This document shows positions 15,548-61,503 of a stretch of 64,000 bases of DNA, in pieces. The DNA lies in assembly GCA_964427275.1 (NCBI GenBank), contig CAYRSR010000001.1, forward strand, positions 20,394 through 84,393, in the 5' to 3' direction. Source of the DNA: an uncultured Candidatus Saccharibacteria bacterium. GTDB lineage: Bacteria > Patescibacteriota > Minisyncoccia > UBA6257 > CAYRSR01. The notes under the pieces are model-generated. The model was not told the DNA's origin. It ran no database searches and saw nothing but the letters and a program-made list of their open reading frames with translations. The position numbers and the translations under genes are program-made. The first letter of the stretch is position 1, and the number at the start of each line of letters is the position of its first letter.

Positions 15548-15551
15548 AACA

Positions 15552-16760: not shown

Positions 16761-16906
16761 AATGTAAATTTAAAATGTAAAAATCAAAATGTAAAATGAC
16801 GATTTAAAATTCAAAATAGATAAATATTAAAATGATTTTGAAATTTGCTAATTTTAACATTTTGCATTGTAATTTTAATTTTTGATTTTTTAATTTTAAA
16901 TTTATA
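16761..16906. repeat. AT-rich imperfect palindromic intergenic element related to the AAAATGTAAAAATCAAAATG motif
   Basis: Left arm TAAATTTAAAATGTAAAAATCAAAATG and right arm CATTTTGCATTGTAATTTTAATTTTTGATTTTTTAATTTTAAATTTA are largely reverse complements. The motif recurs at 12373, 13785, 50875 and 59490. Confidence 0.4.
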
Positions 16907-19236: not shown

Positions 19237-19267
19237 CAAAATCAAGCCTGCCCCTGAATTTCAGGGG
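19237..19267 (-). terminator. rho-independent terminator downstream of major pilin gene
   Basis: Perfect 15-bp palindrome AAGCCTGCCCCTGAA-T-TTCAGGGGCAGGCTT followed by a T-rich tract on the minus strand. Confidence 0.6.
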
Positions 19268-19292
19268 CAGGCTTCAAACGCTTCCTGCTCAA

Positions 19293-19889: not shown

Positions 19890-19983
19890 CCTTTTTGTCA
19901 CTTTTTTCGACCTTTGTTATTATTGTAAAACAAATAATTACAAGAATCAATTGGGAATTTGTTTTTAAAAAAATTACAAGGAT

Positions 19984-28539: not shown

Positions 28540-28585
28540 ATATTTTTTACTGTCCTTAGTATAGTAGCCTGTTTTGTCTATTTTG

Positions 28586-29857: not shown

Positions 29858-29946
29858 CAAAGACTTTTTATTAACTAGATTTTAAATTCTTGCGTTTTAA
29901 AATACAATAGCTGAAATGCTAGCAGTAGATATAATCACTTTCAATG

Positions 29947-32071: not shown

Positions 32072-32116
32072 AGTTTTTTATGGATACTTAAAATTTTTTT
32101 CTCTTTTATGACTTGA

Positions 32117-35231: not shown

Positions 35232-35348
35232 TTTTTACAATTAGTAAAACTTTATTTCAGGTTAATTTTCTTGTCAAGTTTTAAAAAATTTCAAAAATCG
35301 CTTGCTTAGAAATTTCTATTAGCCAAGAAATATTAGACTTATCTCTCT

Positions 35349-36614
35349 TTAATTTTCGGTCATCAATGTCTTTCGCAAATATAAAGCAATTACATGACTT
35401 CTCTCAAGCTGTCTTTCTTTAGTTAACTTCTTATTCCACTCATTACATAACCTACTAACTGCATTTTGTTCTGGGTAACCTCCCGGATAAAGATAAATAG
35501 AACATTTCGGGCAAACAGTTGTTGGAGTACGTGCCCAAATACCTCCTAAATGCTGCTTAATCCAAAGAAGAATTCTTACAAACGAGCGACGCTCTCCTCC
35601 AGTATGAAGAATTTTAACCAGTTTGAAATCAGGCTCAAATAAATATTTTAATTTCTTTAACGAGAAACTTCGATGATGATAATTAACATGAAAAATTGTT
35701 TTACAGCGTATACATCGAGCTAAACCCAATGACAATTGTTCTTGCCAAGGAACACTTATTAGTATCCACTTTCGAGCTACCCGCTTAAGCTCCTTTAGCG
35801 TCCGTTCATAAGCAGCTTGAGGAAGATGTTCCAAGAGCTCTGCTGCTAGGACAAGATCGAAGCTTTGGTCTCTAAATGGAAGATTATCTGCAGATCCAAT
35901 TACTGTTTTGGTTTTTACGTATTTTAAAGCAGCCTGGCTTGTGTCTACTCCTATAACTTTATAAGAACTGGCAAGTCGATTAGTAATTCTGCCATCACCA
36001 CATCCTACATCAAGTATTGTTGAAGTACCTTTAGGTATCATAGTAATTGTGTCGTTAATCCGCCTTAATTCTCTCTTATCAAGTTTTTTACCCCAAAGAG
36101 AGGATTGTTCATAATATCCTTCTGCTTTTTTAGATTTAGCTAAAAGAATTATGTCATTATAATCGCGAATAAAATAGCGTCTTTTAAGAATACAAGCTAG
36201 CCATACTAAAAGCATAAGACTCAATGGAAAATGAACATGGTAGTAAACAGCTGGCAGACGAAACGCAGCAAATACCAACAAAAGAGTAGTTAAGAATTTA
36301 TTCAAAATTCCTCCCAACTTACGTATCAGGACAACCACAACTAAATCAGCTTTTTGTAAAAAGAACCTTACAGGTTTAGGAGAGAGTTTAGTTATTTTCC
36401 TGTATTTACCAATCAATGAGGTTGATATTCTATATACTGCTGAAGGAATCCTAACTATTTCAAAACCAGTAATTCTTTCCCGTTTTGGCAAGTTCTTAGC
36501 CCAGAGTCCAATAACTGTTACCCAAAGACCAAACTTAGAAAGAATCCTAGCTTCTTTAATCGTACGTGAGTCATTTACTAAAGTATTACGCGTTACTATA
36601 CAAACTCTGCCCAT
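35349..36614 (-). CDS. fusion protein: GT4-N-terminal-like domain + TM segments + class I SAM-dependent methyltransferase
   Basis: The N-terminus (RVCIVTRNTLVNDSRTIKEARILSKFGLWVTVIGL) parallels the N-terminus of the adjacent GT4. The C-terminal half has methyltransferase motif I LDVGCGDGRIT and post I/II motifs. Confidence 0.65.
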   Translation of the reverse strand: MGRVCIVTRNTLVNDSRTIKEARILSKFGLWVTVIGLWAKNLPKRERITGFEIVRIPSAVYRISTSLIGKYRKITKLSPKPVRFFLQKADLVVVVLIRKLGGILNKFLTTLLLVFAAFRLPAVYYHVHFPLSLMLLVWLACILKRRYFIRDYNDIILLAKSKKAEGYYEQSSLWGKKLDKRELRRINDTITMIPKGTSTILDVGCGDGRITNRLASSYKVIGVDTSQAALKYVKTKTVIGSADNLPFRDQSFDLVLAAELLEHLPQAAYERTLKELKRVARKWILISVPWQEQLSLGLARCIRCKTIFHVNYHHRSFSLKKLKYLFEPDFKLVKILHTGGERRSFVRILLWIKQHLGGIWARTPTTVCPKCSIYLYPGGYPEQNAVSRLCNEWNKKLTKERQLERSHVIALYLRKTLMTEN

Positions 36615-36630
36615 GCTCAACTTTTGTTTG

Positions 36631-38148
36631 TCACCTGCTACTAGCTTCTATCTTATGAAGTAACGCATTCCAATTGTCCGTTAGTAAGAAGGCTCTATGT
36701 TCGTATAACTCTTTCAAAACATACTGGTAATCATAAAATACCAGCTTCTTACCGGAATTCCAGTTTTCGATTGTTTGCATCCATTTGTGCATCCAGAATT
36801 TTAAAGTTTGATACACTTCCTCTGGAAGATCAGCAGAAGCAAGTAGACATACCAAAGCAACCACATGATAAGTATGATAATAATTCTTACCAATACCAAA
36901 CTTGGAAAAGTTAGTTGGATAACCACAGAATAGTTTGTCACGCACTGAGGTAATATGAACTACTGAATAATTACTGAGTTTTTTTGATTGAAGCTTAACA
37001 GTTTCTCCTCCAGCAGGAGTTGTTTGATAGGGATCATATTCACCAACATTAAACTCAACAGAAAAAGGTTTTCCTTCTCCTATTAAATAAGTATCATACC
37101 TTTGACTACAGCTTATCCATATATCAGTCCACCCGGAAGTAGTTTTAATAATTCTATTGTCATAAGATGAACTATCTTCTTTGATAAGTTCAAGCTTAAA
37201 TACTAAGTCATCCAGCTCAGGTAAGCGAGATTTATAAAATACATAAAGATTATCCGGTGGTCCATCAGGATGATAAATTCTAACTCGATAAGGACAAAGA
37301 TCTGAATACAAACTCAAACCAGTTGTCGAATCGTGGAAGGAAGGTAAAACTTGAGCAAGGGTAAAGATATTTTTCCTGAATAGTTCTAATGCTTCTGAAT
37401 CATTATAAAAAGTAGCATATTGATGAAGATAAAGAAGTGCATGAAGCCATCCATTAAGAATAACTTCAGGGGCAGATCGAAAAAGGGGTAGTTCAAGCAG
37501 AAAGCTATCTTTTAAATTTACTCCACCTTGATAATATGGGAAAGCTAATCCAAGATAGGTTTCTCGAGCTAATTCTTTTAAATTTAAGTTGCAACGCCTA
37601 TCTAGATCCACAATGGCTCCAAGAATCTGAGCCTGACCAATTGCACTTGGAGAAATATCAGGTCCAAGGAAACGATTAAGATTAAAATTATCTGGATAGT
37701 ACCATAAAAGACCACCATTAGGTAATCTATATGCTGTTTTCTTTGCTGCTGAAAGATACTTTTTTATTGGTTCATCACAACTAAGACGAGATAAAAATCC
37801 TCCATAAGCCATCGGATGAAAAACATATCTTTCTTTAACATCCTGCCAGTACTTAAAAAAAGGAACATCATTTACCAAAACAATGTTATCTTTAGAAATA
37901 ACCTGTCTATTCTTTTCTTCAGGAGTATAAACACTTGAAATTAACTGAAGTAAGTCCTCTGGAGGTTGAAGATAATTTTTGATGTGTCGTGCTTTGTGAA
38001 AAGCTACTATTAAAGAATTAGGTTCTTGTTTCGATTCTGTAGGCAAAAATGCATCATAAGAAAATAGTAATAGAATTAACAAAAGACAGCTAACCATAAC
38101 TGCTGTATAGATGACTTTACTAATTAGTTTTTTTAATGGAGTTTTCAT
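36631..38148 (-). CDS. secreted protein with D-glucuronyl C5-epimerase-like C-terminal region (tentative)
   Basis: N-terminal signal/TM. The GPDISPSAIGQAQILGAI segment resembles the S-x-MAQG-x-A-x-S core of PF06662. Weak. Confidence 0.35.
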   Translation of the reverse strand: MKTPLKKLISKVIYTAVMVSCLLLILLLFSYDAFLPTESKQEPNSLIVAFHKARHIKNYLQPPEDLLQLISSVYTPEEKNRQVISKDNIVLVNDVPFFKYWQDVKERYVFHPMAYGGFLSRLSCDEPIKKYLSAAKKTAYRLPNGGLLWYYPDNFNLNRFLGPDISPSAIGQAQILGAIVDLDRRCNLNLKELARETYLGLAFPYYQGGVNLKDSFLLELPLFRSAPEVILNGWLHALLYLHQYATFYNDSEALELFRKNIFTLAQVLPSFHDSTTGLSLYSDLCPYRVRIYHPDGPPDNLYVFYKSRLPELDDLVFKLELIKEDSSSYDNRIIKTTSGWTDIWISCSQRYDTYLIGEGKPFSVEFNVGEYDPYQTTPAGGETVKLQSKKLSNYSVVHITSVRDKLFCGYPTNFSKFGIGKNYYHTYHVVALVCLLASADLPEEVYQTLKFWMHKWMQTIENWNSGKKLVFYDYQYVLKELYEHRAFLLTDNWNALLHKIEASSR

Positions 38149-38163
38149 ATCAACTTAAATTCT

Positions 38164-39309
38164 TTATTGTAAACTCTTTATTTCTTCTACCACTTTTTTA
38201 TAAATCTTTTCTTTATAAGCTGGCTCTATTGGCAAGCTTAAAACTTGCTCTGTAACCTCTATGGTATTTTTTAGTTTTCCTAAGCATTTACATCTTTTTT
38301 TAAAAACTTTCATCTTACAAAGAGGTACTGGGTAGTAAACCATTGTTTGTATGCCTTTTCTTTTAAGTTTTTCTTGAATCTTATCTCTTTTTTTATTAAG
38401 TAGTTTCACGGTATATTGATGATAAACATGATAAGCTCTTCTTTGAACCTTGGGTATTTTAATCCAACTTATTCCTCTTAGGTACCTATTGTAGAATCTG
38501 GCTATTTTTCTTCTTTTTTTATTAAACTTATCTATGTATCTTATTTTTGCAAGCAAAACAGCTGCCTGCAAAGTATCAAGACGAGCATTATAACCTATAT
38601 GTTCTGCATCATATTTATCTTTACCCCCATGCTTTCTTAACATTCTTACAATTTCCGCCAGTTTATTATCATTTGTAGTAATCATTCCTCCATCGCCAAA
38701 TCCGCCAAGATTTTTAGAAGGGAAAAAACTGAAACATCCTGCATCGCCAAACGAACCTGTTTGTCTTCCATTCCATTTAGCACCAAAACTTTGAGCACAA
38801 TCTTCTACTATAAACAAATTATTTTTTCTAGCTATCTTTATTATTTCATCCATATTGGATGCCTGACCATAAAGATGAACAGGAAGTATTCCTACCACGT
38901 TACTATCATATTTTTCTAAGGCCAAATTTATCTGCACTGGGTCTATGTTAAAAGTCTCAGGGTTTATGTCTACAAAAAGTGGAGTTGCTCCAGATCTTAA
39001 AATAGCATCTCCGGTAGCAGTAAAGGTAAATGGTGTAGTAATTATTAAATCTTTTTTATTCCAGAACTCAGAATCTCTTTTTTTGATAGCTATAGCTCTT
39101 AAAGCAAGAACTAAAGCATCTGTTCCTGAAGATACACCAACAGCATGTTTTACTTTTATATAGTTAGCAACTTTTTGTTCTAATTCTTTTACTTCAGGGC
39201 CTAATATCCAGCGTTGATGTCTAAGACATTTCTTAATAGCAGAATTAATCTCTTTTTTAATTAACTTATACTGAGCCACCAGATCAAGAAGTTTTATTTC
39301 AATTGCCAT
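38164..39309 (-). CDS. DegT/DnrJ/EryC1/StrS-family sugar aminotransferase (WbpE-like)
   Basis: PLP-dependent fold with family-typical N-terminus (LDLVAQYK...GPEV.ELEQK...[11 protein letters not shown]). Confidence 0.85.
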
Positions 39310-39878
39310 ACTTTGTTTCTCTTTTTTCTGTACTTTCTTTTACAAATTTTACAAATAGCCTTTCCTTTCTTAAATTCTAATTTATTTCCACATTCACAAA
39401 CCCAGCCAATAATTCTTGCAGGTACTCCAGCTACAATTGCATAATCTGGAACATCTTTTGTAACCACAGCTCCAGCTCCAATCATTGCCCATTTACCAAT
39501 TTCAATTCCACAAACAATTGTCGCATTTGCTCCAATCGTAGCTCCTTCTTTCACCAATGTAGGAAACCATTTTCCATATTGAGGATATTTTGATTTAGGA
39601 TATTTAGCTCTTGGGTTTTTATCATTAGTAAAAACTGCTGAAGGTCCTACAAAAACGTAATCTTCTAAGGTTACTAAATCCCAAACATCAACATTAGACT
39701 CAAGTTTTACCCCTTTCCCCAGTTTTGCTTTAGAACTTACCAGACAATTATGCCCGATAACACAATTTTCACCAATTTCTGCACCTTTTAAAATCTGACA
39801 ATTTTGCCAAATTTTCGTCCCTTTTCCAATTTTTGCTCCCTTTTGAATCTCAGCAGTTTTATGTGCCCAATAATTCAT
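39294..39878 (-). CDS. hexapeptide-repeat sugar N-acetyltransferase (WbpD/WlbB-like)
   Basis: Left-handed beta-helix repeats and a C-terminal GVPARIIG... region as in UDP-GlcNAc3NA N-acetyltransferases. Confidence 0.8.
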
Positions 39879-40846
39879 AAATTAATAAGTTTCCCATTTT
39901 TACTCAATGACCTCTGGCAACCTTCTAACACCTTTAATACTTCTAGTGCTTCTTTTCCATCTGTTCTTGGATCTTTTCTTTCCTTGATACATTTCAAAAA
40001 ATGCTTTGCTTCCTCCATTAATGGTTCTTTTTTTGAAATTTTAATCACTTTCCCTTTAGCCTTTATTACTTCCGGATTTTTGTTTTTCCTCCACCTTATC
40101 TTATGGAAATAAATTATAAGCTCATTTTTCACACCATCAAAAACTGCCATTGCCTTTGAGCCAATTATCGACAATTTTTGCTCTTTAAAGGGATTTAGCC
40201 AGGAAACAAAAATGTGAGCTGCTTTTCCTTCTTGAAACTCTAGAGAAGTTAGAGTAATATCGGGAATGTCTTTTTGAAGATATGTCTTTCCAATTGCCCT
40301 AACTTTCTTGGGCATTCCTAAAATATCAAGAATGACTGAAATATCATGAGGAGCAAATGACCATAAAACATTTTCCTCTCTTCTTAACCTACCAAAATTA
40401 AGTCGGTTTGACCAAATATAGCAAATTTTTCCTAATTCCCCTTTCTTTATTATTTCCTTTAACTTTAAAACCGCTGGATGATACAAAAGCAAGTGTCCTA
40501 CCATTAAAATCTTTTTTTTCTTTTCAGTCAATTTTAGTAGTTCTTTACCTTCTTTGACTTTCAGAGCCAGTGGCTTCTCTACAAAAACATCTTTTCCGGA
40601 ATTTAAAGCTAATTTAGCTAACTTATAATGAGTAGCCGAGGGAGTTGAAATCACAACTGCATCAATCTCTCTCTTTTTTAAGACATCTAAAAAATTTGTT
40701 GTTGTTTTAAGCCAAGGAAAGTCTCTTTTTCTCTTCCTTAGAACTTTTTTATCAGAATCACAAATAATCTCTAAAACTCCAAGTTGACTAAAAACCCTAA
40801 CCAAATTCTTTCCCCAGTATCCTGTCCCAATTATTGCTACTTTCAT
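39875..40846 (-). CDS. Gfo/Idh/MocA-family oxidoreductase (WbpB-like)
   Basis: N-terminal Rossmann [14 protein letters not shown]. 323 aa. Confidence 0.8.
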
Positions 40847-40852
40847 AAGTCT

Positions 40853-42169
40853 TTACCACCAAGACACATTTTTGTATTCTCTCGATTTAATAGCATTTCT
40901 GGTATCAACTACCAATTTTGCATTTTTAGCAATTTCATTGTAATCAAATCCTGAGTGATCTGTAAGAATTAAGACCAAATCATACCTTTTTAAAACTTCA
41001 GGAGAATACTTAATTGATTCTAAAATTATTGGTTTCTTTAATCTATGATTTTTAACCTCAAATTTTTTAATGTAAGGGTCAAAATAATCAAGCCTGGCTC
41101 TCTTTCGCAAGAGATCCCATATTACTCGGTGAGCTGCTGATTCTCTTGAATCGGCAATATCTCTCTTATAAGCTACTCCCCAAACCAAAATTTTAGAATC
41201 CTTAACTGGCTTTTTGTTTCTATTTAGAAGAGTAATTACTCTAGTAACTACAAAATGTGGCATTTGTTCATTAATCTGTCCAGCTAATTCAATAAATCGG
41301 GGCCAGAAATTAAATTCTCTAGCACGAAAAGAAAGATAGAATGGATCAACTCCAATACAATGACCGCCACAACGAGGAGAAGGATAAAAAGGCATAAAGC
41401 CAAAAGGCTTTGTTTTTGCCGCCTCAATTACTTCCCAGATATCGATTCCCATTTTGCCACAAAGTAAAGCCAGTTCATTTATCATTGAAATGTTTACCAG
41501 TCGAAAAGTGTTTTCTAAAATTTTGGTCATTTCGGCAGTTTCAGGAAAAGTTAGTGGCATTATTTGAGCTTCAATAAAGCTCTGATAAAATTGAGTAGCA
41601 AGTTTAGTACATTTTCTGGTTATTCCTCCTACTACTCTGGGAATACTTTTTAACTGATATTTTTTGTTTCCTGGATCAAGTCTTTCTGGTGAATAAGCTA
41701 AAAAGAAATCTCTACCAACCTTTAAACCAGTCTTTTGAAGGATTGGTAAAACTACTTCCCTGGTTGTTCCAGGATAAGTGCTACTTTCTAAAATAATAAG
41801 TTGGTGTCTATGTAAATATTTTGCAATTTCTTTTGTAGCTGATTTTATATAGGAAATATCAGGAATTTTGTTTTTATCTAAAGGAGTTGGAACGCAGATT
41901 AAAACAACATCCGATTTTTTTAAACACAGATAATCATTAAAGACTTCTAATCTTTTAGAAGCTATTGCTTTCTTTAAATCTTCTGAAGTCACATCAAAAA
42001 TGTAAGACCTTCCTATATTAATCTGCCTAACTCTTTGATTATTTTTATCTATGCCAAAAACTTTAAAGCCTACCCTGGTTAGTTGAACAACAGTAGGCAA
42101 TCCTACATAACCTAAACCGATAACTGTAACTTTTGCTTTTCTATTTCTAATTAACCTATCCAAGTTCAT
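40853..42169 (-). CDS. UDP-N-acetyl-D-glucosamine/mannosamine 6-dehydrogenase (WbpA/WecC-like nucleotide-sugar dehydrogenase)
   Basis: VTVIGLGYVGLP Rossmann motif and the three-domain UDPGDH architecture. The ATG at 42169 is preferred over the TTG at 42178. Confidence 0.85.
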   Translation of the reverse strand: MNLDRLIRNRKAKVTVIGLGYVGLPTVVQLTRVGFKVFGIDKNNQRVRQINIGRSYIFDVTSEDLKKAIASKRLEVFNDYLCLKKSDVVLICVPTPLDKNKIPDISYIKSATKEIAKYLHRHQLIILESSTYPGTTREVVLPILQKTGLKVGRDFFLAYSPERLDPGNKKYQLKSIPRVVGGITRKCTKLATQFYQSFIEAQIMPLTFPETAEMTKILENTFRLVNISMINELALLCGKMGIDIWEVIEAAKTKPFGFMPFYPSPRCGGHCIGVDPFYLSFRAREFNFWPRFIELAGQINEQMPHFVVTRVITLLNRNKKPVKDSKILVWGVAYKRDIADSRESAAHRVIWDLLRKRARLDYFDPYIKKFEVKNHRLKKPIILESIKYSPEVLKRYDLVLILTDHSGFDYNEIAKNAKLVVDTRNAIKSREYKNVSWW

Positions 42170-42299
42170 AAATTTCAATTTTTCTTTTGATGTTTATGTG
42201 CTTTTCTTATCATCACTTTTAAATATTTTTGATAAATAAACCTACTTGGTGTTCTAAAGGCTAATTTTCCTTTTTTAGCTCTTTTTGACGAGTATTTTT

Positions 42300-43367
42300 T
42301 CATTGTCTGAGTTCTTCAAACCATTGGTGAACCATTTTGAGACCTTCTTTGAGATCAACTTTTGATTGCCAGCCAAGTAATTTTTTAGCCAGAGTTATAT
42401 CAGCTCGAGTATGATAAACATCACCATCTCTTGGTGGTAAATATTGTTTTTTGCCACCAACTAAATCGGCTAGGTAATTTATTGAGTAGGATTTTTCACT
42501 GCTCATGTTAATTACTTCTCCCCCTTTTAGCTTCTCACTTTCCATTGCTTTAATAGTTGCATCAATTGCATCGTCGACATAACAAAATCCTCTGGTCTGC
42601 TTACCATCACCATAAATAGTTAATGGCTTACCTTCAATTTTTTGTTTTAAAAATTTTCCAATTACCAAACTGTATTCGGAATCAAAGTCAATTCTGGGCC
42701 CATATATGTTGAAGTATCGTAAAGAAATAATTGGTGTCCTATAAAGATTGGTAAATAGCTTAGCAAATTGTTCCCCAACTAATTTCTGTAAGCCGTAAGG
42801 ACTAACAGGCTCAGGGGTCATATCTTCTTTGAAAGGTAGTTTTTCTTGATTACCATAAACAGCCGAAGAAGAAGCAAAAACAACTCTCTTTACTCTACTC
42901 TCAGCTGAAGCCTTAAATACACTGATTGTTCCAAGAATATTAACCTTAGAAGTCCTGACAGGATCCTCAACTGAAAGAGGCACTCTTGGAATAGCTGCTA
43001 AATGAAAAACATAATCAACTTTTTGAAAAAGTGGTTTAATCTTATCAAAATTACAAATATCAAGTTCATAAAATTCAGCTTTAGGATTTAAATTCTCCCT
43101 TTTACCAGTGGATAGATCATCAATTACAATTACTTTATAGTTTTCTTTAATTAATCTATCTACTAAATGACTTCCAATAAAACCAGCACCACCAGTAACT
43201 AAGATTGTTTGATGTTTGAGGTTAGATGTTCGATGTTGGAGATTGGAAGTTGGAAGTTGGAGGTTGGAGGTTGGAGGTTGGAAGTTGGAGGTTTGAGGTT
43301 GGAAGTTTGACGTTTGATGTTGGATATTAGATGTTAGATGTTGGAGGTTTGATGTTTGATGTTTCAT
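42300..43367 (-). CDS. NAD-dependent epimerase/dehydratase (UDP-sugar 4-epimerase / UXS-like) with heptamer-repeat-encoded N-terminal tail
   Basis: TGGAGFIGSHL Rossmann motif and YxxxK. The first 54 codons, (H/Q)QTSN(L/F)Q repeats, are encoded by a (AACWTCY)n heptamer tract. Confidence 0.8.
   Translation of the reverse strand: MKHQTSNLQHLTSNIQHQTSNFQPQTSNFQPPTSNLQLPTSNLQHRTSNLKHQTILVTGGAGFIGSHLVDRLIKENYKVIVIDDLSTGKRENLNPKAEFYELDICNFDKIKPLFQKVDYVFHLAAIPRVPLSVEDPVRTSKVNILGTISVFKASAESRVKRVVFASSSAVYGNQEKLPFKEDMTPEPVSPYGLQKLVGEQFAKLFTNLYRTPIISLRYFNIYGPRIDFDSEYSLVIGKFLKQKIEGKPLTIYGDGKQTRGFCYVDDAIDATIKAMESEKLKGGEVINMSSEKSYSINYLADLVGGKKQYLPPRDGDVYHTRADITLAKKLLGWQSKVDLKEGLKMVHQWFEELRQ
43205..43364. 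repeat. tandem heptanucleotide repeat tract, about 23 units of GADGTTD (plus strand), within the 5' coding end of the epimerase gene
   Basis: Read directly: gatgttt gaggtta gatgttc gatgttg gagattg gaagttg gaagttg gaggttg gaggttg gaggttg gaagttg gaggttt gaggttg gaagttt gacgttt gatgttg gatatta gatgtta gatgttg gaggttt gatgttt gatgttt. Confidence 0.85.
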
Positions 43368-43753
43368 TGTTTTTTTAGATATCTTTTTAAACTTAATAAC
43401 TTGAAAAATAATTCATCGATTCTGGTGATGATTTGATTAAAGGTTATTTTAGATATGTATTTTAAATTCTCGGCAATAATACAACAAGCCTTTACCTCTA
43501 TCAAAGAACCTAATGCAATATCCACAAACCTTGCAAATTCTTTCTTGTTTCGCGCACTTCCTTCTGTAATATTCAATATCACTGAAATTGCCGCTCGTTT
43601 CAATTGAGCACCCAAAATGAATGTTTCTTCCTTAGGAAATTTTAAACTAAGATTGTAAATTTCCTTAAGTAATTCATTTGCTAACTTATAAACTTCTAAA
43701 TTTCCAAAATTATACTTCTGATACATAATTCCAACATCCAACATATCCAACAT
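43364..43753 (-). CDS. four-helix-bundle protein (23S rRNA intervening-sequence protein family, TIGR02436-like)
   Basis: 129 aa. YKLANELLKEIYNLSLKFPKEE...QLKRAAISVILNITEGSAR...EFARFVDIALGSLIEV is typical of the family. Confidence 0.7.
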   Translation of the reverse strand: MLDMLDVGIMYQKYNFGNLEVYKLANELLKEIYNLSLKFPKEETFILGAQLKRAAISVILNITEGSARNKKEFARFVDIALGSLIEVKACCIIAENLKYISKITFNQIITRIDELFFKLLSLKRYLKKQ

Positions 43754-43770
43754 CTAACATCTAACATCAT
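43729..43770. repeat. heptamer tract (CCAACAT/ATCTAAC x about 6), inverted orientation relative to 43205-43364
   Basis: ccaacat ccaacat atccaac atctaac atctaac atc spans the start codon of the four-helix-bundle gene and the stop of the upstream YqeY gene. Confidence 0.7.
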
Positions 43771-44276
43771 TTAGCTTTTTTCAGGAGTAAGTCTTTGACT
43801 ATTTTTGCGATTAATTGAGGTTCAGCTTTTCCTTTGAATTTAGACATCATCTCCTTCATTACTTTTCCCATATCAGCTATAGATTTTGCTTTGAGTTTTT
43901 CTATAACTTGCTGGGCTGACTTTTCAATTTCTGTAGCAGAAGCTTGCTTGGGTAAATACTTTTTCAGAATCTCTATCTCGGCCTGTTCTTTTTTAGCTAG
44001 TTCTTCTCTCCCTCCTTTTCGATACAGTTTAATTGAATCAGTTCGCTTTTTTATTTCCGAATAAATCAAGTCAATTATTTCCTGATCAGTTAAACTACTT
44101 TGCTTAGTTAGTTCTGATTCAGTTATTGATTTACTTTGTTTAAGAATTCTTACTCTTTTTTCCTTTTCACGATTTAAAATAGATGTTTTTAAAAGCCTCA
44201 GCACCGAAAGAACTTCGGTTTGTTTATTTTTTAAAGCTAATTTAAAATCCCGTTCAATTTCTTGCTTAAGAGACAT
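43767..44276 (-). CDS. GatB/YqeY domain protein
   Basis: MSLKQEIERDFKLALKNKQTEVLSVLRLLKTSI start is typical of YqeY. The ATG at 44276 is preferred over the GTG at 44306. Confidence 0.7.
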   Translation of the reverse strand: MSLKQEIERDFKLALKNKQTEVLSVLRLLKTSILNREKEKRVRILKQSKSITESELTKQSSLTDQEIIDLIYSEIKKRTDSIKLYRKGGREELAKKEQAEIEILKKYLPKQASATEIEKSAQQVIEKLKAKSIADMGKVMKEMMSKFKGKAEPQLIAKIVKDLLLKKAK

Positions 44277-44281
44277 AATAA

Positions 44282-45277
44282 CTACTTTGTTTTTTCTAAA
44301 TACCACTTTAAAGTTTTTTCTAATCCTTCATCCAGACTGTACTTTGGTTCAAATTCAAGCTCTCTTTTAGCTTTAGAGTAATCTAGAGCAACTCGGCCAA
44401 CCTCACCTCTTTTTTCTGGAACATATATTTTGGCTACATCTATCCTGGTTAACTTTTTAATCTTATCAAATAAGCTATTTATGCTAGTCTCTACACCAGT
44501 CCCAATATTAAATATTCCAGTTTTATCTTTCTTTAAAGCTAAAATTGCAGCATCTATCGCATCGTCTATGTAAATAAAATCTCTAGTTTGAGTTCCATCT
44601 CCAATAATAGTAGGCTGCTCACCAGCTAGCATCTTTTTAAAAAATACCGAAATTACTCCAGCTTCAGCAGAAATTCCCTGTCTTGGTCCATAGACATTTG
44701 AGTAACGCAAGGAAATACTCGGTACCTGATATACTTCGCGATAATAGTCCAAGTACTTTTCTACTGCTAGCTTAGCCACTACACATGGAGCAATAGGTCT
44801 TTCTGGAGAAGTTTCAGGAGTAGGAATGACATCTGCTTCTCCATAAATTGCTCCACCAGTAGAGAAAAATATAAACTTAGAATCAGTAATTTCCACCGGC
44901 AAGAAATGTAAAAAATTTTTTAACACATTTAAAGAGCCCATAATATTTATCCGGGCATCCCAGTCAGGATTATCTAGCGACTTTCTTATATCCACCTGAG
45001 CAGCTAGATGGAACACTGTCTGAGGTCTTTCTTTTTTAAATATTTTGGAAATTTTAGGTGAGCAAATATCTACTTTATAAAAACTTGCTTTTTTGTTCAC
45101 CAGCTCTTTTCTTCCGGTAGAGAGATTATCAATAACTACTACCTTAAAGCCAAGTTCTACTAATCTATCCACCAGATGAGAACCAATAAATCCAGCTCCA
45201 CCAGTAACTAAGATTGTTTGAGGTTTGAGGTTAGACGTTGGATGTTGGATATTAGAGGTTTGATGTTTTTCCAGCAT
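44282..45277 (-). CDS. NAD-dependent epimerase/dehydratase (paralog) with short heptamer-repeat-encoded N-terminus
   Basis: MLEKHQTSNIQHPTSNLKPQT followed by ILVTGGAGFIGSHLVDRL. The ATG at 45277 is preferred over the ORF-track TTG at 45331. Confidence 0.8.
   Translation of the reverse strand: MLEKHQTSNIQHPTSNLKPQTILVTGGAGFIGSHLVDRLVELGFKVVVIDNLSTGRKELVNKKASFYKVDICSPKISKIFKKERPQTVFHLAAQVDIRKSLDNPDWDARINIMGSLNVLKNFLHFLPVEITDSKFIFFSTGGAIYGEADVIPTPETSPERPIAPCVVAKLAVEKYLDYYREVYQVPSISLRYSNVYGPRQGISAEAGVISVFFKKMLAGEQPTIIGDGTQTRDFIYIDDAIDAAILALKKDKTGIFNIGTGVETSINSLFDKIKKLTRIDVAKIYVPEKRGEVGRVALDYSKAKRELEFEPKYSLDEGLEKTLKWYLEKTK
45215..45268. repeat. heptamer tract (about 8 units: gtttgag gtttgag gttagac gttggat gttggat attagag gtttgat) in the 5' coding end of the second epimerase gene
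   Basis: Same unit family and the same adjoining 22-nt sequence (CCACCAGTAACTAAGATTGTTT) as at 43183-43206. Confidence 0.8.
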
Positions 45278-45409
45278 TGAGATGATTATAACATATCTTA
45301 AAAGTAGTTTGCACCACTTGACAAATTGCAAAAATGTTAGTATAATTAGGTCAGCTTAAGGGAATTAACAAAAAAATAAGGTTGGTAGAATTGAAAAAGG
45401 AGGTTCGAA

Positions 45410-49886: not shown

Positions 49887-50657
49887 CTTTGATAAGACAA
49901 AATCCAGTAAGGCAGTTTGATAATCCAGTTTCCCTGATTTGATTTTCACATCGTATTCAGCAAATTTTAAAACCAATTTTTTTCTTGTTCCCAATAGATT
50001 AAAAATATAAGCAGGCTCAGTTCTGAAAAGTAGTTTTTCTAAATTTACCAAATTAAAGTTGTTAATTAGTTTAAAAATACCTTCTGAATTCAAATAAGGA
50101 AAGAAATTAAGGATTTTAGTTAAATCTACTGGCTGTGAAAATTTAGCTAACTTAATTTTTTTTAGCTCATTTACTATAAACCAGCTTTTATCCTGACCAT
50201 AATTTTGACCATATCTAGCTAAAAAATTAACTACATCTCTTTTTAACTTAAGATTTAACTTTTGGGCTTCTTTTTCAATGAAAAATACAAGTTTATGTTG
50301 ATCCATTTCTTGAAATTTCTGCGAGATAACCGGTGACTTGGTCAAAAATTCAAACTCCTTTTCAGGACATGAATCCTCGCTAATAATTAAGGTAGTTTTT
50401 TTTCGATTCAGTTGAATCTTTAAAAAGTTAATCAGCTTTTTAGAATTAACCTTAAAAATATTATCAACCAAAGCCAGCTTGAAATTCTCAAATAAAGATG
50501 GTTGGTCTAAAAAGTCCATTAAATCTTCAAAGTTATCCTCAGCTAGGTCAAACCTTTTAAAATCAAACTGAGGATGTTTTCTTTTGTAAATTGAAATTAT
50601 TTCCTTTTGTTTTTGTTTTCTTCGATATGAATCTTTTCCATAAAGAAAAATAAGCAT
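49875..50657 (-). CDS. probable DNA polymerase III delta subunit (HolA-like), short
   Basis: MLIFLYGKDSYRRKQ start resembles holA. Synteny next to rpsT is common for holA. Weak sequence support. Confidence 0.4.
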   Translation of the reverse strand: MLIFLYGKDSYRRKQKQKEIISIYKRKHPQFDFKRFDLAEDNFEDLMDFLDQPSLFENFKLALVDNIFKVNSKKLINFLKIQLNRKKTTLIISEDSCPEKEFEFLTKSPVISQKFQEMDQHKLVFFIEKEAQKLNLKLKRDVVNFLARYGQNYGQDKSWFIVNELKKIKLAKFSQPVDLTKILNFFPYLNSEGIFKLINNFNLVNLEKLLFRTEPAYIFNLLGTRKKLVLKFAEYDVKIKSGKLDYQTALLDFVLSKLLD

Positions 50658-50887
50658 AATAGCAAATTCAAAATTTAAAAATTAAATTTTAAAATGATAA
50701 TTTAAAATTCAAAATTAGCAAATTTTAAAATTACACCAACCATAATAAAATTTAAAATTTAAATATTAAAATGCGATTAATCAATTTTCAACTATCAATT
50801 TCTAATTTTCATTGAATTTTCAATTTTCAACTTCCAACTTCTAACTTCTAACTTTTATTTGTAAACTGTCATTTTTCATTTTGATTT
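50658..50887. repeat. dispersed intergenic repeat element, copy D
   Basis: Contains GCGATTAATCAATTTTCAACTATCAATTTCTAATTTTCATTGAATTTTCAATTTTCAACTTCCAACTTCTAACTTCTAACTTTTATTTGTAAAC, matching copies A and B. Confidence 0.75.
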
Positions 50888-51469
50888 TTAAATTTTACAT
50901 TTACTATGGTATTTCTCTACTTTGAATCTATAGATTACTATTTTTTCTCTGGACAGGTCTATTCCTGCTTTCAGGCAGGCAATAGATATTTGTTTCTCTA
51001 CTGTATCAACTCCCTCTAAATCTGGTAAAAGCAAGCCAGTTTTGACAGGCACTTTGCCATTAAAAGTTACATTTGATGAACTAGTAATTGGAGTTGTCTT
51101 TACAATTATTCCGTATTTCTTAGGATTTAACTCGGTTTTAGTTTTTACTAGCTCCGGCTTGCTCAAGATATAAACAGTATAAACTAAATCTGGTAATTCA
51201 AGTTGGCTAACTCTTCCAAATCTATAATCTTCAGTAGCAGCAGCAATAGCATTATAAATTACTTCTAATGCAATATTTTTTCTGGTAGGAAGATAAGTTC
51301 CAATACAGCCGCGCAATACTTTATGACTATTTAATCTTTTTTCAATAGTTACAAAAGTTCCGGCTTGCTTATTTAAAAACTCCTGGTCTAAATCCTTTGG
51401 TACAGAAATTATCTTTCCTTCTTTAATGTAGCTTTCTACTGCTAATTTGGCTAAATCAACCAAAGACAT
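50888..51469 (-). CDS. AMMECR1 domain protein
   Basis: LRGCIGTY...AAATEDYRF motif set. The ATG at 51469 is preferred over the TTG at 51493. Confidence 0.7.
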   Translation of the reverse strand: MSLVDLAKLAVESYIKEGKIISVPKDLDQEFLNKQAGTFVTIEKRLNSHKVLRGCIGTYLPTRKNIALEVIYNAIAAATEDYRFGRVSQLELPDLVYTVYILSKPELVKTKTELNPKKYGIIVKTTPITSSSNVTFNGKVPVKTGLLLPDLEGVDTVEKQISIACLKAGIDLSREKIVIYRFKVEKYHSKCKI

Positions 51470-52332: not shown

Positions 52333-52365
52333 TGAAGCCCCGTTTTTAAAAGAAACGGAGCTTCA
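52333..52365 (-). terminator. rho-independent terminator downstream of second pilin gene
   Basis: On the minus strand, GAAGCTCCGTTTC-ttttaaa-AACGGGGCTTC followed by ATTTTTTATA. Confidence 0.5.
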
Positions 52366-52387: not shown

Positions 52388-52939
52388 TTAAATTCGGTTC
52401 AATCCTGGCACTGAACCAATCTCGTAAACCTCATTATTATTTCCACCATCAGTACTCTCCACATCAGCACTTCCACCATTGCTGTACTTTGTACTCTCCA
52501 TGTTACAATTCAACTCAAAGGTTAACGGGTGAGTACCGGTAGCATTACTAGCAAATTCATAGTAATAACTACTATCATTAACTGGGTCTAGTGGCAAAGC
52601 TGATAAAGGAGAACCAGTTGGAATTGCATCTAAATTAACATCTACCCAACCATTACCATCAGTGGTTATAACGGTACGCTCAGTACAGCTAGTGTCTGCT
52701 GGTCCGTAACCAGTAGTTCCCTTAGTGCAATAATCATTGCCACTGAATGATGGATCAACTACCGATACCAGATACAAAGCCAAAGCTGACTGAATACTCT
52801 TTAAATCAGACATTCTCTGAGAATCTCTAGCTTCCTTAAGCATCTGAGCTGGATTCATCACTACCGCTATCGTGGTTGCCAGAATTGCTAGAATTGCAAT
52901 AACTATCAACAGCTCAATTAAAGTAAACCCTTTCTTCAT
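52388..52939 (-). CDS. type IV major pilin paralog
   Basis: MKKG-FTLIELLIVIAILAIL. The first roughly 60 aa are nearly identical to pilin 19293-19889, with a divergent C-terminus. 183 aa. Confidence 0.85.
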   Translation of the reverse strand: MKKGFTLIELLIVIAILAILATTIAVVMNPAQMLKEARDSQRMSDLKSIQSALALYLVSVVDPSFSGNDYCTKGTTGYGPADTSCTERTVITTDGNGWVDVNLDAIPTGSPLSALPLDPVNDSSYYYEFASNATGTHPLTFELNCNMESTKYSNGGSADVESTDGGNNNEVYEIGSVPGLNRI

Positions 52940-53009
52940 TTTTTTAAATTAAACTTCGACCTTTAATCTTATTATATCACAAATCAATTACTTGAATTGT
53001 GGATAACTT

Positions 53010-53387
53010 TCACTTCAAAAAATTCTTAACCCGCTGCACTAAATCATCAATGGAAACTTGAGCTTTAACAAAGTAGTCAGCTGCTCCAAGTTGCTTTCCC
53101 CTAGAAATATCTTCAGTTTGACCTAAATTAGAGACAATTATTACCGGTGGAAACTTAATCTGGGGATCTTTGGAAGCCTCCTCCATAAATTCAAAGCCAG
53201 ACATTTTAGGCAAAATTATATCCAGTAATATCAAATCAAAGGATGCGCCCGGTTCTCTTAATAAGTTCAAAGCTTCTTCCCCGTCCCTAGCTACCACCGG
53301 CTTAAATCCTTCCTTTTCCAGACGACTCTTTAAAAGATGAGCTAGAAATTTTTCATCTTCTACTACTAAAATTTTTTTTGGTTCCAT
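53010..53387 (-). CDS. stand-alone response regulator receiver (CheY/PilH-like)
   Basis: REC domain with DD...D...T...K signature (ILVVEDEKF...LILLDIILPKMSGFEF...VIIVSN). 125 aa. Confidence 0.8.
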   Translation of the reverse strand: MEPKKILVVEDEKFLAHLLKSRLEKEGFKPVVARDGEEALNLLREPGASFDLILLDIILPKMSGFEFMEEASKDPQIKFPPVIIVSNLGQTEDISRGKQLGAADYFVKAQVSIDDLVQRVKNFLK

Positions 53388-53902
53388 AAGTTAATAAATT
53401 TAATTTTAAAGTTTTTAAGCACTGCTAAATCCTTTTTTGGTTGCCCAAAGGAGTTTTGTTAGTTTTTAATTGATCCACGGACAGGTTCCCCTACCCGTGC
53501 CTTGTTACGACTTCATCCTGATCACCGAGCTGATTCTAGGTCCTTAAACAGGAACTTCGAACCCTCCCGGCTCTCCTGATGTGACGGGCGGTGAGTACAG
53601 GACTCGAGAACGTATTCACCGCGACATAGCTGATTCGCGATTACTAGCGATTCCGGCTTCATGAGGGCGAATTGCAGCCCTCAATCCGAACTGAGACTAC
53701 TTTTAAGAGATTCGCTCCGCCTTACGGCTTAGCAGCTCTTTATAGTAGCCATTGTAGCATGAGTGCAGCCCAGGGCATCAGAGGGCCATGCTGACTTGGC
53801 GTCATCCCCACCTTCCTCCCCAAAAATTGAGGCAGTTCCGCATGACACATATAACATGCAGTAGGGGTTGCGCTCGTTACCTCACTTAAGAGAACACCTC
53901 AA

Positions 53903-53934
<32 letters not shown>

Positions 53935-54175
53935 CTCCAATGTCCTTGAAGGAAGCCTCACCTTTCGGTAAGGTTTCATTGGAGTGTCAAGCCCTGGTGA
54001 GGTTCTTCGGTTATTGACGAATTAAGCCTCATGCTCCACCGCTTGTGCGAGTCCCCGTCTATTCCTTTGAGTTTTAACCTTGCGGTCGTACTCCCCAGGC
54101 GGTCTGCTTAACGCGTTAGCTACGCCACCCAGAGGGTCGATACTCTAGACAGCAAGCAGACATCGTTTAGGGCCT

Positions 54176-54209
<34 letters not shown>

Positions 54210-54441
54210 AGGCTTTCGGGTCTCAGAGTCAGGAGAGCCCCAGCTATTTGCCTTCGCCTTTGGTATTCCGCACGATATCAACGGATTTCACCCCTACACC
54301 GTGCGTTCTAAAAGCCTCTGGCTCCCTCTAGTTCGGTAGTTTCCGAGGCATTTCCCTGGTTGGGCCAGGGGCTTTAACCTCAGACTTACCGAACCTCCTA
54401 CACCCGCTTTACGCCCAGTAAATCCGGATAACGCTTAGGGT

Positions 54442-54476
<35 letters not shown>

Positions 54477-54889
54477 AACCCTTTATTCTCCACTTACCAT
54501 CAACATCTACTAAAAGGTAGATGCTTTTTCAGTGGAAAAAGCGGTTTACACTCCGCAGAGCTTCATCCCGCACGCGGCGTCGCTGGATCAGGCTTTCGCC
54601 CATTGTCCAAAATTCTCGACTGCTGCCTCCCGTAGGAGTAGGGCCCGTGTCTCAGTGCCCTTGTTGGAGAACAACCTCTCAGTCCTCCTACCCGTCATAG
54701 CCAAGGTGAGCCATTACCCCACCTTCTAGCTGATAGGCCGCAGGCCATTCCCATTCCGGCATACCATAAGATACACCTTTAATGACATCACTAAAAGTGT
54801 GTCATACTATCGGGTATTAGCCACCTTTTCAGATGGTTATCCCCGTGAATGGGGTATGTACCTACGTGTTACTAACCCGTTTGCCGCTC

Positions 54890-55210
54890 CCAGCCCCACT
54901 TTTTGGATTCAAATAAAGCATTTCTTAATTCTCTTGAAAAGTTCCTGTTTTGCACTCCCATAATGTTTTAATCTCTTTTCTCTTCTCTTCGCATCTTTTT
55001 TATTTCTATAAGCTTCGGCATAAATTAAAACCCACTTTCCATCTCTTCGGTAAGTGGCTTTTGTTTTTCCTTGATTATGATCTGTCAACCTCTTTTGAAG
55101 ATTTTTAGTTAAACCAATGTAAACTTGTTTTGTGACATTATGCTGAATTAGATAAACATACCACCACATAACCTTATTATGACTATTGAATCCAAAAAGT
55201 GAGGCTGGGC
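54890..55210 (-). other. intervening/insertion sequence within 16S helix 6, closed by a 23-bp stem and carrying an endonuclease ORF
   Basis: The exon sequence GCATGCAAGTCGTGCGC is interrupted by CCAGCCTCACTTTTTGGATTCAA...[ORF]...TTGAATCCAAAAAGTGGGGCTGG and then resumes at GAGCGGCAAACGGGTTAGTAACACGTAGG. The flanks are reverse complements, allowing one U-G. Confidence 0.6.
54909..55169 (-). CDS. GIY-YIG nuclease-superfamily protein (homing-endonuclease-like) encoded inside the 16S insertion
   Basis: YVYLIQHNVTKQVYIGLTKNLQKRLTDHNQGKTKATYRRDGKWVLIYAEAY matches the GIY-(x10)-YIG...R...E core. The ATG at 55169 has an AAGG SD. The ORF-track 5' extension to 55223 lies in the stem. Confidence 0.7.
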   Translation of the reverse strand: MWWYVYLIQHNVTKQVYIGLTKNLQKRLTDHNQGKTKATYRRDGKWVLIYAEAYRNKKDAKRREKRLKHYGSAKQELFKRIKKCFI

Positions 55211-55330
55211 GCACGACTTGCATGCCTTATCCACGCCGCCAGCGTTCATCCTGAGCCAAGATCAAACTCTCGTTTTGGGCAACCAAAAAAGAATTCAACC
55301 TGTTTAACTTTTAAAGGTACAACCACGTTA

Positions 55331-59119: not shown

Positions 59120-59194
59120 TGGCTTATCTTCCTCTCATAATTATAATTTAATTATAGTTATAATATTGCAACTGAAATAAATTATCAACCAATT

Positions 59195-59290
59195 TACAAA
59201 ATATGATGCCAATCTACGAATTGCTAATTATCAACGAATTTACGGATAAAAGTTGGAAGTTGGAAGATAGAAGATGACAAATATCTAAAA
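59195..59290. repeat. dispersed intergenic repeat element, copy E (inverted orientation)
   Basis: Its reverse complement, ...CCAACTTCCAACTTTTATCCGTAAATTCGTTGATAATTAGCAATTCGTAGATTGGCATCATAT, matches the conserved core of copies A, B and D. Confidence 0.75.
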
Positions 59291-59482: not shown

Positions 59483-59547
59483 CAGTAAATTAAAAATGTA
59501 AAAATCAAAATGATTTAATCTACAAAGGAGAATATCTTAATATTTGC

Positions 59548-61503
59548 TTATCTAGTTACTTTCTCCAGTAAAAATTTGTAAATTTCACCAGTTTTTTGAT
59601 TTTCTAAATATAATCCACTTTCATCTTCAAACATCCGCCAGAGAATTTGTCGAGTTTTCTGATCTCTAAAAGTAATGTCTCCTACATCAAAAGCAGCTGC
59701 TTGAATTTTTCCTTCTACATCAAGTTTGTACCCGGTTGCCGGATTTGTTGTCCCAATACCAACGTTGCCACTTGGATCAATTGTTAGATCTGCAACATCA
59801 TCACCGGCACTAAAGGAGAGATCAAGATCCGTCCCTACAGCACCAGTCCTTATCAACACATTCGGTTCAGTTCCTCCAGCTGTCAATACAAAATCAAGTG
59901 CCTTTAGTTCACCTGATGTGTTTTCAGCGATTGCAGATAAAACATATTGAGAAGTGTCCTGTTGACTTCCTTGTACAACCAATTTTGCTCTATCTGGACT
60001 CGTTGTTCCAATGCCAACATTACCGTCATCTTTAATAAACAAGCCTTCTACACCTCCAGATCTAAAAAATCGAAAGCCTCCCCAGTATCTATCTCGCCCC
60101 ATAACCCATTCCTCAGTTGTCCCTTCATTAAAGCCAATCCAGACATCACCACCATCTGGATCAGTCAACCTGAGCTTCCTTTTTGTATTACTTGATTCAC
60201 TAATTTCAAGCTTTGCTCCTGGACTGATTGTTCCGATGCCGACGTTGCCGTCAAAAGTAACTACCAGCTTCCCGCCTCCAGCATCCAGTAATCCGGCCGG
60301 GTTGATTGTTCCGATGCCGACACCGCCTAAGGAATTTACTACAAATCTGCTTGTTGCATCGTTGGAATCTGCTCTTAAAATAGGCTGCTGATAAGAATAA
60401 GAAGTTCCCTCTGGCAAATCAGTAGAAAATGCAGAATCTACAGTTAATGAGGTTTGAGATTCAATTGAAACTATGGTTTTGTATTCATTTCCAGTCCCAG
60501 GGTCGGCAATTAAAATATCTCCTACATTTAATTCGGTTTGGAAGCTGGTGTTATTTCCGGTAACTGTAATATCTGATGAAGAAATTGTTCCGGTTCCGGA
60601 TTGAGCTGCTGTTCCTTTGATATGCAGAACAGAAATTGGTTCAGTCGTTCCAATACCGGTATTTCCAGATGATAATACTATAAATTTTCCTCCGCCAATA
60701 TCTAATAAACCTGAAGGATTCTTAGTTCCTATTCCTACTTTCTTTTGCTTGGTAATTACAAATGGAGGTTCAAGTTCACCAATTCCAGAATGAGGCTCAA
60801 TTTTAAATTTATTTAAATCATCTACATCTACTCCAACAGTAAACTGGTCAGTTGCACCAGCATCAAAAATTAGAGCGGAATCTTCTCCGGTTGGACTAGA
60901 AATTTCTAAATTAGTAAATACACCCTTATCCCAGCGGGAAGCAGAATTCCCTACCGAAAACCAATCATCCTGGTTTGGAATTAAATCTGAATCAAAAGTA
61001 GCAGCTGAAACTTTTCCAATTGCAGTAGTCAAAGTTCTACTAATCTGCATTAAAGGAGAAGGAGAATTATAAGTTAAAGTAATATTTAATTCTACAATTG
61101 CTTTTCCGCCCGGATTTTCATATTTAGTGACCTCAAAATTATCTACTTTTACCCGAGTAGTAGTTAATGAGGTCTTATCCGCAGTTCCCTGCTTTAGATA
61201 AACTGCATTATTATCAGCTGAAATTATAGTTGGGTCAATAGCTGAGTTTCTCATTCTCAGTATTAATTCAGCTGAAGTTTCACCAGGTTTATTTTCAATT
61301 AAACTTGATTGACGAACCAGCCGTTGAATAGTATCCTGCACAAACCGCAATTGAGTAGTAACTTCCGAGCCAGCAGTCAGTCTTTGATGAGCCCTGGTAA
61401 TGCTTAAAAGAATAGCAGTAAAAATGCCTGAAGCAACAGCAAAAATAGCAATATAAATTAACAGCTCCATCAATGTATATCCCTTAAATTTAGATGAAAT
61501 CAT
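59548..61503 (-). CDS. giant pilin-like protein (class III signal peptide + repetitive beta-helix-like C-terminal region)
   Basis: MISSKFKG-YTLMELLIYIAIFAV prepilin N-terminus with Glu+5. Body contains recurring G(N/G)VGIGT(T/I)(N/S/E)P...LLD(A/I)GGGK motifs, at least 5 times. 651 aa. Confidence 0.65.
   Translation of the reverse strand: MISSKFKGYTLMELLIYIAIFAVASGIFTAILLSITRAHQRLTAGSEVTTQLRFVQDTIQRLVRQSSLIENKPGETSAELILRMRNSAIDPTIISADNNAVYLKQGTADKTSLTTTRVKVDNFEVTKYENPGGKAIVELNITLTYNSPSPLMQISRTLTTAIGKVSAATFDSDLIPNQDDWFSVGNSASRWDKGVFTNLEISSPTGEDSALIFDAGATDQFTVGVDVDDLNKFKIEPHSGIGELEPPFVITKQKKVGIGTKNPSGLLDIGGGKFIVLSSGNTGIGTTEPISVLHIKGTAAQSGTGTISSSDITVTGNNTSFQTELNVGDILIADPGTGNEYKTIVSIESQTSLTVDSAFSTDLPEGTSYSYQQPILRADSNDATSRFVVNSLGGVGIGTINPAGLLDAGGGKLVVTFDGNVGIGTISPGAKLEISESSNTKRKLRLTDPDGGDVWIGFNEGTTEEWVMGRDRYWGGFRFFRSGGVEGLFIKDDGNVGIGTTSPDRAKLVVQGSQQDTSQYVLSAIAENTSGELKALDFVLTAGGTEPNVLIRTGAVGTDLDLSFSAGDDVADLTIDPSGNVGIGTTNPATGYKLDVEGKIQAAAFDVGDITFRDQKTRQILWRMFEDESGLYLENQKTGEIYKFLLEKVTR

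Follow-up and report, generated by a model that had tools for sequence, protein, structure and literature searches.

The 64,000-nt stretch of DNA that we analysed (hereafter the window; ~33% GC) encodes two proteins that we predict to be paralogous major-type type IV pilins of a large Patescibacteria family. The two genes, pilA1 and pilA2, are probably whole-gene duplicates of the single pilin of a conserved pilus assembly cluster that were later split, with the 5' ends kept alike by ancestry and purifying selection. It is textbook biology for pilin paralogues to keep their N-termini alike, and we regard the pair as a modest discovery with nothing pointing to a new mechanism.

The gene pilA2 (52388-52939, minus strand) encodes a 183-aa protein (P0001) in which the leader MKKG precedes FTLIELL. 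Its paralogue pilA1 (19293-19889, minus strand) encodes a 198-aa protein (P0016) from its ATG, with MKRG before FTLIELL; an alternative GTG start at 19901 would give 202 aa. Both ORFs, which share one 96,444-nt contig, had been located correctly by the sequence-only reading, and the strings it quoted are the plus-strand reading of the 5' end of pilA2. A protein identical to P0001 is present in NCBI, JGI and ENA assemblies. Each pilin has a class III leader (MKKG/FTLIE in pilA2, MKRG/FTLIE in pilA1), here taken as a short basic leader ending in Gly, with Phe or Met at +1 and Glu at +5, and each matches N_methyl (PF07963) and TIGR02532 above the cut-offs. The strict leader pattern was identified in these two ORFs only in the window. 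A looser pilin N-terminus (KGYTLMELL) occurs in a 651-aa ORF (59548-61503, minus strand), which matches N_methyl above the cut-off and in which GNVGIGT motifs recur within a long C-terminal region. A role as a tip adhesin, or as a minor pilin of large size, is possible for this protein.

A promoter and leader region was identified upstream of pilA2 (52940-52997, minus strand) by motif search and by homology to the pilA1 upstream region. It includes an extended -10 box (TGaTATAAT, ~52979-52971), followed by AAAGGTCGA at 52964-52956. The equivalent region of pilA1 (19890-19950, minus strand) has the form TTGATT-17-TACAAT (19950-19922), followed by AAAGGTCGA at 19915-19907. Intrinsic terminators are present after pilA2 (52333-52365, minus strand; a 13-bp stem, then a T run) and after pilA1 (19244-19274, minus strand; a 14-bp stem with 9 GC pairs). 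Both are strong, as had been claimed for them, and they are unrelated to each other. Based on these elements, pilA1 and pilA2 are predicted to be intact and separately transcribed, each with its own promoter-like site.

The near-identity of the 5' ends, first put at ~93% over ~150 bp, was confirmed. The shared coding segment (leader and alpha-1 helix) extends over 52764-52927 in pilA2 and 19714-19877 in pilA1 (both minus strand), with 92.07% identity over 164 nt (blastn, E ~4e-60). Identity is 92% across the first 150 nt and 90% across the first 180 nt, the longest perfect runs are 32, 20, 20 and 20 nt, and the alpha-1 helices of the two proteins are 95% identical. The same region forms the top repeat within the window in a self-blast (19711-19947 and 52761-52997; 240 nt at 85%), which takes in ~58 nt of promoter and leader; upstream identity is 43/65. 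Homology runs from ~60 nt upstream of the genes to the stop codons, and not beyond.

Codon choice was used to separate DNA-level likeness from protein conservation. In the N-terminal block (the first 60 codons), 41 of the 53 identical residues use the same codon, compared with 22.2 expected from the codon usage of 23 long window ORFs (z 5.5), and nucleotide identity at these codons is 93% where 78% is expected. As a control, pilin P0002 (locus L003), from another organism with similar GC, is 86% identical in protein over the N-terminal block, but only 74% identical in DNA, with silent sites near saturation (pS 0.70). By both the codon excess and the control, the DNA identity extends beyond protein conservation. 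Thus, the leader peptide and N-terminal helix are common to both genes at the DNA level, as first proposed, and the pattern that the sequence-only reading had named as evidence against it (identity due to amino-acid conservation alone, with synonymous divergence) is not what we see. An orthologue pair from two related loci (L088 and L089) is 96% identical in protein and 86% in DNA (pS 0.46); the window pair, at 92% in DNA, has a pS of 0.27 in this comparison and of 0.29-0.32 in others. The pN of the window pair is 0.03 in the N-terminal block vs. 0.24 elsewhere. Conserved mRNA structure was considered as the cause of the silent-site conservation and rejected, as the 5' regions fold no better than shuffled sequences (z 0.05 and -0.44).

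The sequence-only reading had assigned different C-terminal globular domains to the two pilins, and this part did not hold. The proteins align end to end (61.65% amino acid identity over 206 columns, E 1e-68) and have a single type of head domain with variable loops. Conserved head blocks (ITTDGxGWV..NL..IPxGSPLSxLPLDPVND, LTFELNCNMESTKYS and DGGxN..YEIGSxPGL) reach up to 80-90% nucleotide identity between the copies and are kept across >100 family members. Relative to pilA2, pilA1 has insertions of 15 aa and 9 aa in its head loops, and the two proteins also differ by substitutions towards the C-terminus and in the loop that follows the helix. Of the three conserved head blocks, C1 uses the same codon at 17/25 identical residues (10.0 expected, z 3.0) and C3 at 9/13 (5.8 expected, z 1.9, a weaker excess). 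Block C2 (same codon at 6/14) is saturated (p 0.02), as are the loops. The codon excess in the N-terminal block and C1, and more weakly in C3, therefore indicates that the whole gene is a duplicate.

The AF2 model of pilA2 (pLDDT 94.3) consists of a helix (residues 7-59) and a small, loop-rich head with four short beta strands. The helix agrees with the hydrophobic alpha-1 of ~53 residues that characterizes type IV pilins at the N-terminus. A Foldseek search of the PDB with this model returned no match with E<1, and no Pfam model matched the head domain (pilA2 residues ~60-183, 52388-52762). A family profile aligned with alpha-1 of pilins and pseudopilins of known structure, and likeness to solved pilins is confined to the helix. 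Invariant W, P-D-P, E-S and D-G-G motifs characterize the head in this family of >1,500 members, the named homologues of which are from Patescibacteria (including Paceibacterota, Jorgensenbacteria and Liptonbacteria). With its 33% GC and its 16S rRNA gene of 1,815 nt, these homologues mark the genome as one of CPR/Patescibacteria type.

Genes for pilus assembly follow pilA1 on the minus strand. These encode a 186-aa multi-TM protein (18648-19208) with no Pfam or NCBIfam match, a PilB-type assembly ATPase (16907-18625; T2SSE and MshEN), the platform protein PilC (15552-16760; T2SSF) and a probable minor pilin (15077-15610). The last was recognized by weak ComGE and prepilin-dependent-protein matches, and by a place like that of N_methyl proteins downstream of PilC in relatives. 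The neighbours of pilA2 are a phosphoesterase gene and a gene for a stand-alone REC receiver (53010-53387, minus strand; 125 aa, Pfam Response_reg 1e-21), and a 16S rRNA gene is nearby. The REC gene is 70 nt upstream of pilA2, in agreement with the claim that such a regulator adjoins one of the pilins. A 542-aa ORF near REC was considered as a possible histidine kinase partner, and is instead a FakA-like kinase. No match to a prepilin peptidase (Peptidase_A24) was found among the ORFs scanned in the window.

We compared this arrangement with nine independent loci from relatives (L003, L004, L005 and L088-L093). A pilin heads the type IV pilus assembly cluster in all nine. In its fullest form the cluster starts with REC or a 7TM histidine kinase and one or two pilins, followed by a membrane protein of 186-195 aa and then by PilB, PilC and a minor pilin. 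A REC or kinase gene is directly upstream of the pilin in eight of the loci (not L004); this gene is REC in L003, L005, L088, L089, L090, L091 and L092. The membrane protein was called in seven (L003, L005, L088, L089, L090, L092 and L093, but not L004 or L091), and may be an unrecognised pilus component. Tandem pilin pairs occur in four (L004, L005, L092 and L093), where both pilins precede a single PilB/PilC. In L005 and L088, rRNA-intron-type LAGLIDADG genes are found upstream of REC. In the window the order, on one strand, is rRNA-REC-pilA2, then 33 kb, then pilA1-TM-PilB-PilC. The ~33-kb interval between the pilins (19984-52321) encodes a large LTD/PKD surface protein, a glycan cluster, recA, yebC, a holA-like gene, AMMECR1 and a phosphoesterase. 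The possibility that this is a foreign island was ruled out by its uniform GC content (~0.33) and by the recA and holA-like genes.

The element AAAGGTCGA occurs exactly twice in the window (52956-52964 and 19907-19915, minus strand), each time 6 nt after a pilin -10 box. Its core, GGTCGA, was identified upstream of 8 of 15 pilin genes from 10 genomes (33-47% GC), where 0.39 occurrences are expected (Poisson 1e-8). Outside the window these are pilins of L003, L005, L088, L089, L092 and L093. Spacing is 3-14 nt after a -10-like box in the pilin leaders. Where two pilins are in tandem, it is the first that has the exact core, and a one-base variant (GGTCGG) is upstream of the PilB-proximal pilin of L004. 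GGTCGA could well act as an operator or within the mRNA leader. For annotation, use can be made of the conserved gene order, of this leader motif and of the head domain for which there is no model.

According to the duplication explanation that we favour, the single pilin of a cluster ordered REC, pilin, ~190-aa membrane protein, PilB, PilC and minor pilin would have been duplicated, and the tandem pair would later have been parted by ~33 kb of ordinary chromosome. The place next to REC would have been kept by pilA2, and the place before the membrane protein, PilB and PilC by pilA1. The near-identical 5' ends would then reflect both common ancestry of moderate age (dS ~0.4) and purifying selection that has acted very strongly on the leader and on alpha-1, probably imposed by prepilin peptidase recognition, membrane residence and the filament core. 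The exposed head loops would have diverged by substitutions and two indels, with fast turnover. Duplication recurs in different lineages, as indicated by the spread of N-terminal pS from 0 to 0.81 over five within-genome pairs (N-terminal/rest values of 0.00/0.14 in L092, 0.17/0.37 in L004, 0.29/0.64 in the window, 0.42/0.31 in L005 and 0.81/0.76 in L093).

In ultra-small, host-dependent Patescibacteria, the chief organ of attachment known is the pilus. We infer that one assembly machine can handle both pilins, and that two alternative or mixed fibre surfaces could result; the 95% identity of the alpha-1 helices and the position of the tandem pilins of relatives before a single PilB/PilC make this the most likely arrangement. 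The two surfaces would probably be used for attachment to different partners or for evasion of phage or host recognition. Alternative pilus types, which the sequence-only reading had also raised, are conceivable. A pilin family that often duplicates, with the machine-facing helix fixed and the loops variable, helps to predict the residues that contact partners or phages.

It is also conceivable, although unlikely, that there are two pilus systems, like the thick and thin pili of Saccharibacteria. PilB and PilC next to pilA1 would then polymerise its product, and pilA2 would depend on another machine, powered by a PilB-type ATPase at the edge of the window. This ATPase (1-1512, minus strand) has an MshEN-like N-terminus, is 41% identical to the cluster PilB and runs off the window start; furthermore, pilA2 has its own promoter and terminator. 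There is also a precedent in the Saccharibacteria TM7x, which has T4P-1 and T4P-2 systems, builds two filaments from PilA1 and PilA2, uses pili for host attachment and needs PilB2 for the thin filament (PMC11623550). TM7x resembles the window in its Patescibacteria lineage, in having more than one major pilin (highly expressed in TM7x) and in having two PilB paralogues. However, TM7x encodes its two pilins at different loci and has a dedicated ATPase, PilB2, for the thin pilus, whereas the window pilins are recent paralogues and relatives keep their pilins in one cluster. The near-identity of the alpha-1 helices, which dock with the machine, points to one shared machine, as does the position of the tandem pilins of relatives before a single PilB/PilC. 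In addition, the second ATPase has no pilus neighbours in the window (these are an NTPase, MarC and a Na/Ca exchanger), and only one PilC was seen. A 186-aa ORF beside the second PilB was considered as a paralogue of the pilin-linked membrane protein; it has no similarity to that protein and is an NTPase.

Other bacteria also have two complete pilin genes, as tandem or dispersed major-pilin paralogues. We take PDB entries 6xxd and 6xxe to represent the wide and narrow pili of Thermus thermophilus PilA4/PilA5. Another example is pilA1 and pilA2 of Xylella fastidiosa (PMC9956873). As in the window, the two genes of these systems have a conserved N-terminal helix and divergent heads, each would be expressible, and assembly components are plausibly shared. 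The window pair differs from both in its Patescibacteria-specific head (unmatched by Pfam models and by Foldseek in the PDB) and in being split by 33 kb.

A less probable alternative to simple duplication, but one that deserves some weight, is concerted evolution. In this case an older duplication would have been followed by conversion of a ~150-180 bp tract that homogenised the 5' module, perhaps with the promoter, while the heads diverged and compatibility with the machine was kept. Several results are in line with this. Silent divergence (dS) is 0.39-0.42 in the N-terminal block and 1.2-1.4 in the rest of the gene (0.39 vs. 1.38 by NG86). Codons for identical residues differ at 12/53 vs. 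28/66 sites with a 60-codon cut (Fisher, p 0.03) and at 10/51 vs. 30/68 with a 58-codon cut (Fisher, p 0.006), and a maximum chi-square test places a breakpoint after codon 49 (permutation p 0.043). The C-terminal-domain phylogeny called for by the sequence-only reading was obtained as a neighbour-joining (NJ) head tree, and it does not join the two copies (27% bootstrap), whereas they are sisters in the tree of the N-terminal module (98%). The nearest head to that of pilA2 in the NJ tree is P0002, from another organism. The gene recA is present. In the L092 pair, the 5' block is 100% identical and the rest 94% (p 0.018).

Other results speak against it. Identical residues in poorly aligned loops can be chance matches, and with only confidently aligned head blocks the comparison becomes 12/53 vs. 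20/52 (p 0.09; per-site chi-square p 0.016). The same codon is used at 41/53 N-terminal sites vs. 26/38 in C1 and C3 together (p 0.35). The head tree is poorly resolved, head DNA is 67% identical between the copies vs. 59-60% to P0002, and the L005 pair trends the opposite way. Thus, the evidence for 5'-specific conversion is weak (p 0.006-0.35 by test); conversion could be an added event, and is not required. Recent exchange is contradicted by the 5' blocks themselves, in which 10-12 codons show silent differences (dS ~0.4). No close relative was usable for an orthologue-based conversion test, the best PilB match among species-representative genomes being 52% (on a 1.8 kb contig) and the others ~42%.

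A clear case among relatives, and a point in favour of conversion in the window pair, is a silent-site mosaic in the tandem pair of L004 (5774-7060 of a 698-kb Patescibacteria contig with 68% GC). The 5' and 3' ends of these two genes are near-identical. In a central cassette (codons 58-104), 16/27 codons differ, compared with 10/131 outside it (p<0.002), and silent sites are saturated. Recombination between pilin paralogues therefore does happen in this family, and the window pair would be an older and less clear case than L004. More speculatively, and with slightly less confidence than we give to conversion in the window, recurrent conversion in Patescibacteria pilin pairs might keep the promoter and alpha-1 module identical, in some genomes together with the 3' end, while the central cassette diverges. 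Such a modular pattern is clear in L004 and faint in the window pair. The first pilin might then be governed through GGTCGA, in connection with the ever-present upstream two-component gene.

The sequence-only reading had viewed the pair as a substrate for gene conversion or antigenic variation. We consider programmed antigenic or phase variation through the shared 5' segment, by conversion of the Neisseria pilE/pilS type (PMC4023411 and PMC12871193) or by a Moraxella-like invertible switch, to be very improbable. The suggestion draws on the two loci, alike in their 5' segment and variable in the head, and on the presence of recA in the interval. But both pilins are complete and have promoters. 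Searches of the window by tblastn and blastn found no promoterless or partial cassettes, only the two full genes and the one unrelated large pilin-like ORF. Neither strand of the window has a G4 motif (G3+N1-7 x4), its homopolymer runs reach only A7/T7, and no recombinase or invertase domain was identified among its annotated ORFs. The longest perfect match between the copies is only 32 nt. Few variants are on record: the single member of the P0001 cluster (pilA2) recurs unchanged in three sources, and the sole pilA1 variant (P0121) carries S54R, an unrelated substitution at a site where pilA2 has A. The search for chimeric pilins in the protein database and in metagenome contigs found none, within shallow sampling, and a shared exact 29-mer returned only pilA2's own contig from the metagenome contigs. 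With no cassettes, G4 motif or chimeric alleles, and no recent exchange, the claim of an active substrate is not borne out.

In Neisseria, variable segments are donated by many promoterless pilS copies that do not include the 5' constant region, and the process requires a G4 element. The window resembles this system in having several pilin-homologous loci in one genome, and exchange would depend on RecA. It differs in that the 5' constant region is what the two genes have in common and in that each gene is complete; cassettes and a G4 motif were looked for in the window and not found. The Q/I inversion of Moraxella bovis and M. lacunata involves two pilin genes with a common 5' constant region and different 3' ends, and requires inverted orientation and the Piv invertase. 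The window genes likewise have a common 5' coding region and differing 3' ends, but they are direct repeats, each lying on the minus strand, and the ORFs scanned in the window include no invertase. As direct repeats that flank recA and core genes, they would, upon reciprocal recombination, delete the 33 kb between them, with recA in it.

Strain variants of one locus misplaced on a single contig would also give two similar genes, and the genome is metagenome-derived; repeats can cause misjoins. Such an artefact is extremely unlikely here. The pilA2 junctions (REC-pilA2-phosphoesterase) were recovered in two independent assemblies (ENA and JGI), the heads are only 60% identical and differ by indels, assemblers use k-mers much longer than the 32 nt of the longest exact repeat, and paralogous pilin pairs are common in relatives.

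Genes of the glycan cluster between the pilins (27742-45331) encode a Wzz-like protein, an initiating sugar transferase, GT2 and GT4 glycosyltransferases, an ABC-2 exporter, a methyltransferase and two epimerase/dehydratases. A WbpA/B/E/D/I-like enzyme set is also encoded, which is presumably a route to a 2,3-diacetamido uronic sugar. Given its place between the pilins, a link between this cluster and pilin or surface glycosylation is conceivable. A gene for a 23S-rRNA-intervening-sequence protein is located inside this region (43364-43753).

Insertions in 16S rRNA genes are common in CPR bacteria. The 16S rRNA gene near REC (53463-55277, minus strand) is 1,815 nt long, compared with a model of 1,533 positions, and thus carries insertions. 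The self-blast also identified dispersed intergenic repeats of ~80-140 nt that are 78-97% identical and occur in both orientations (12352-12509, 13764-13924, 16757-16903, 50654-50911, 59189-59280 and 59485-59512). One copy is located between pilC and pilB. Candidate identities for this repeat family include MITEs, REP-like elements and regulatory RNAs.
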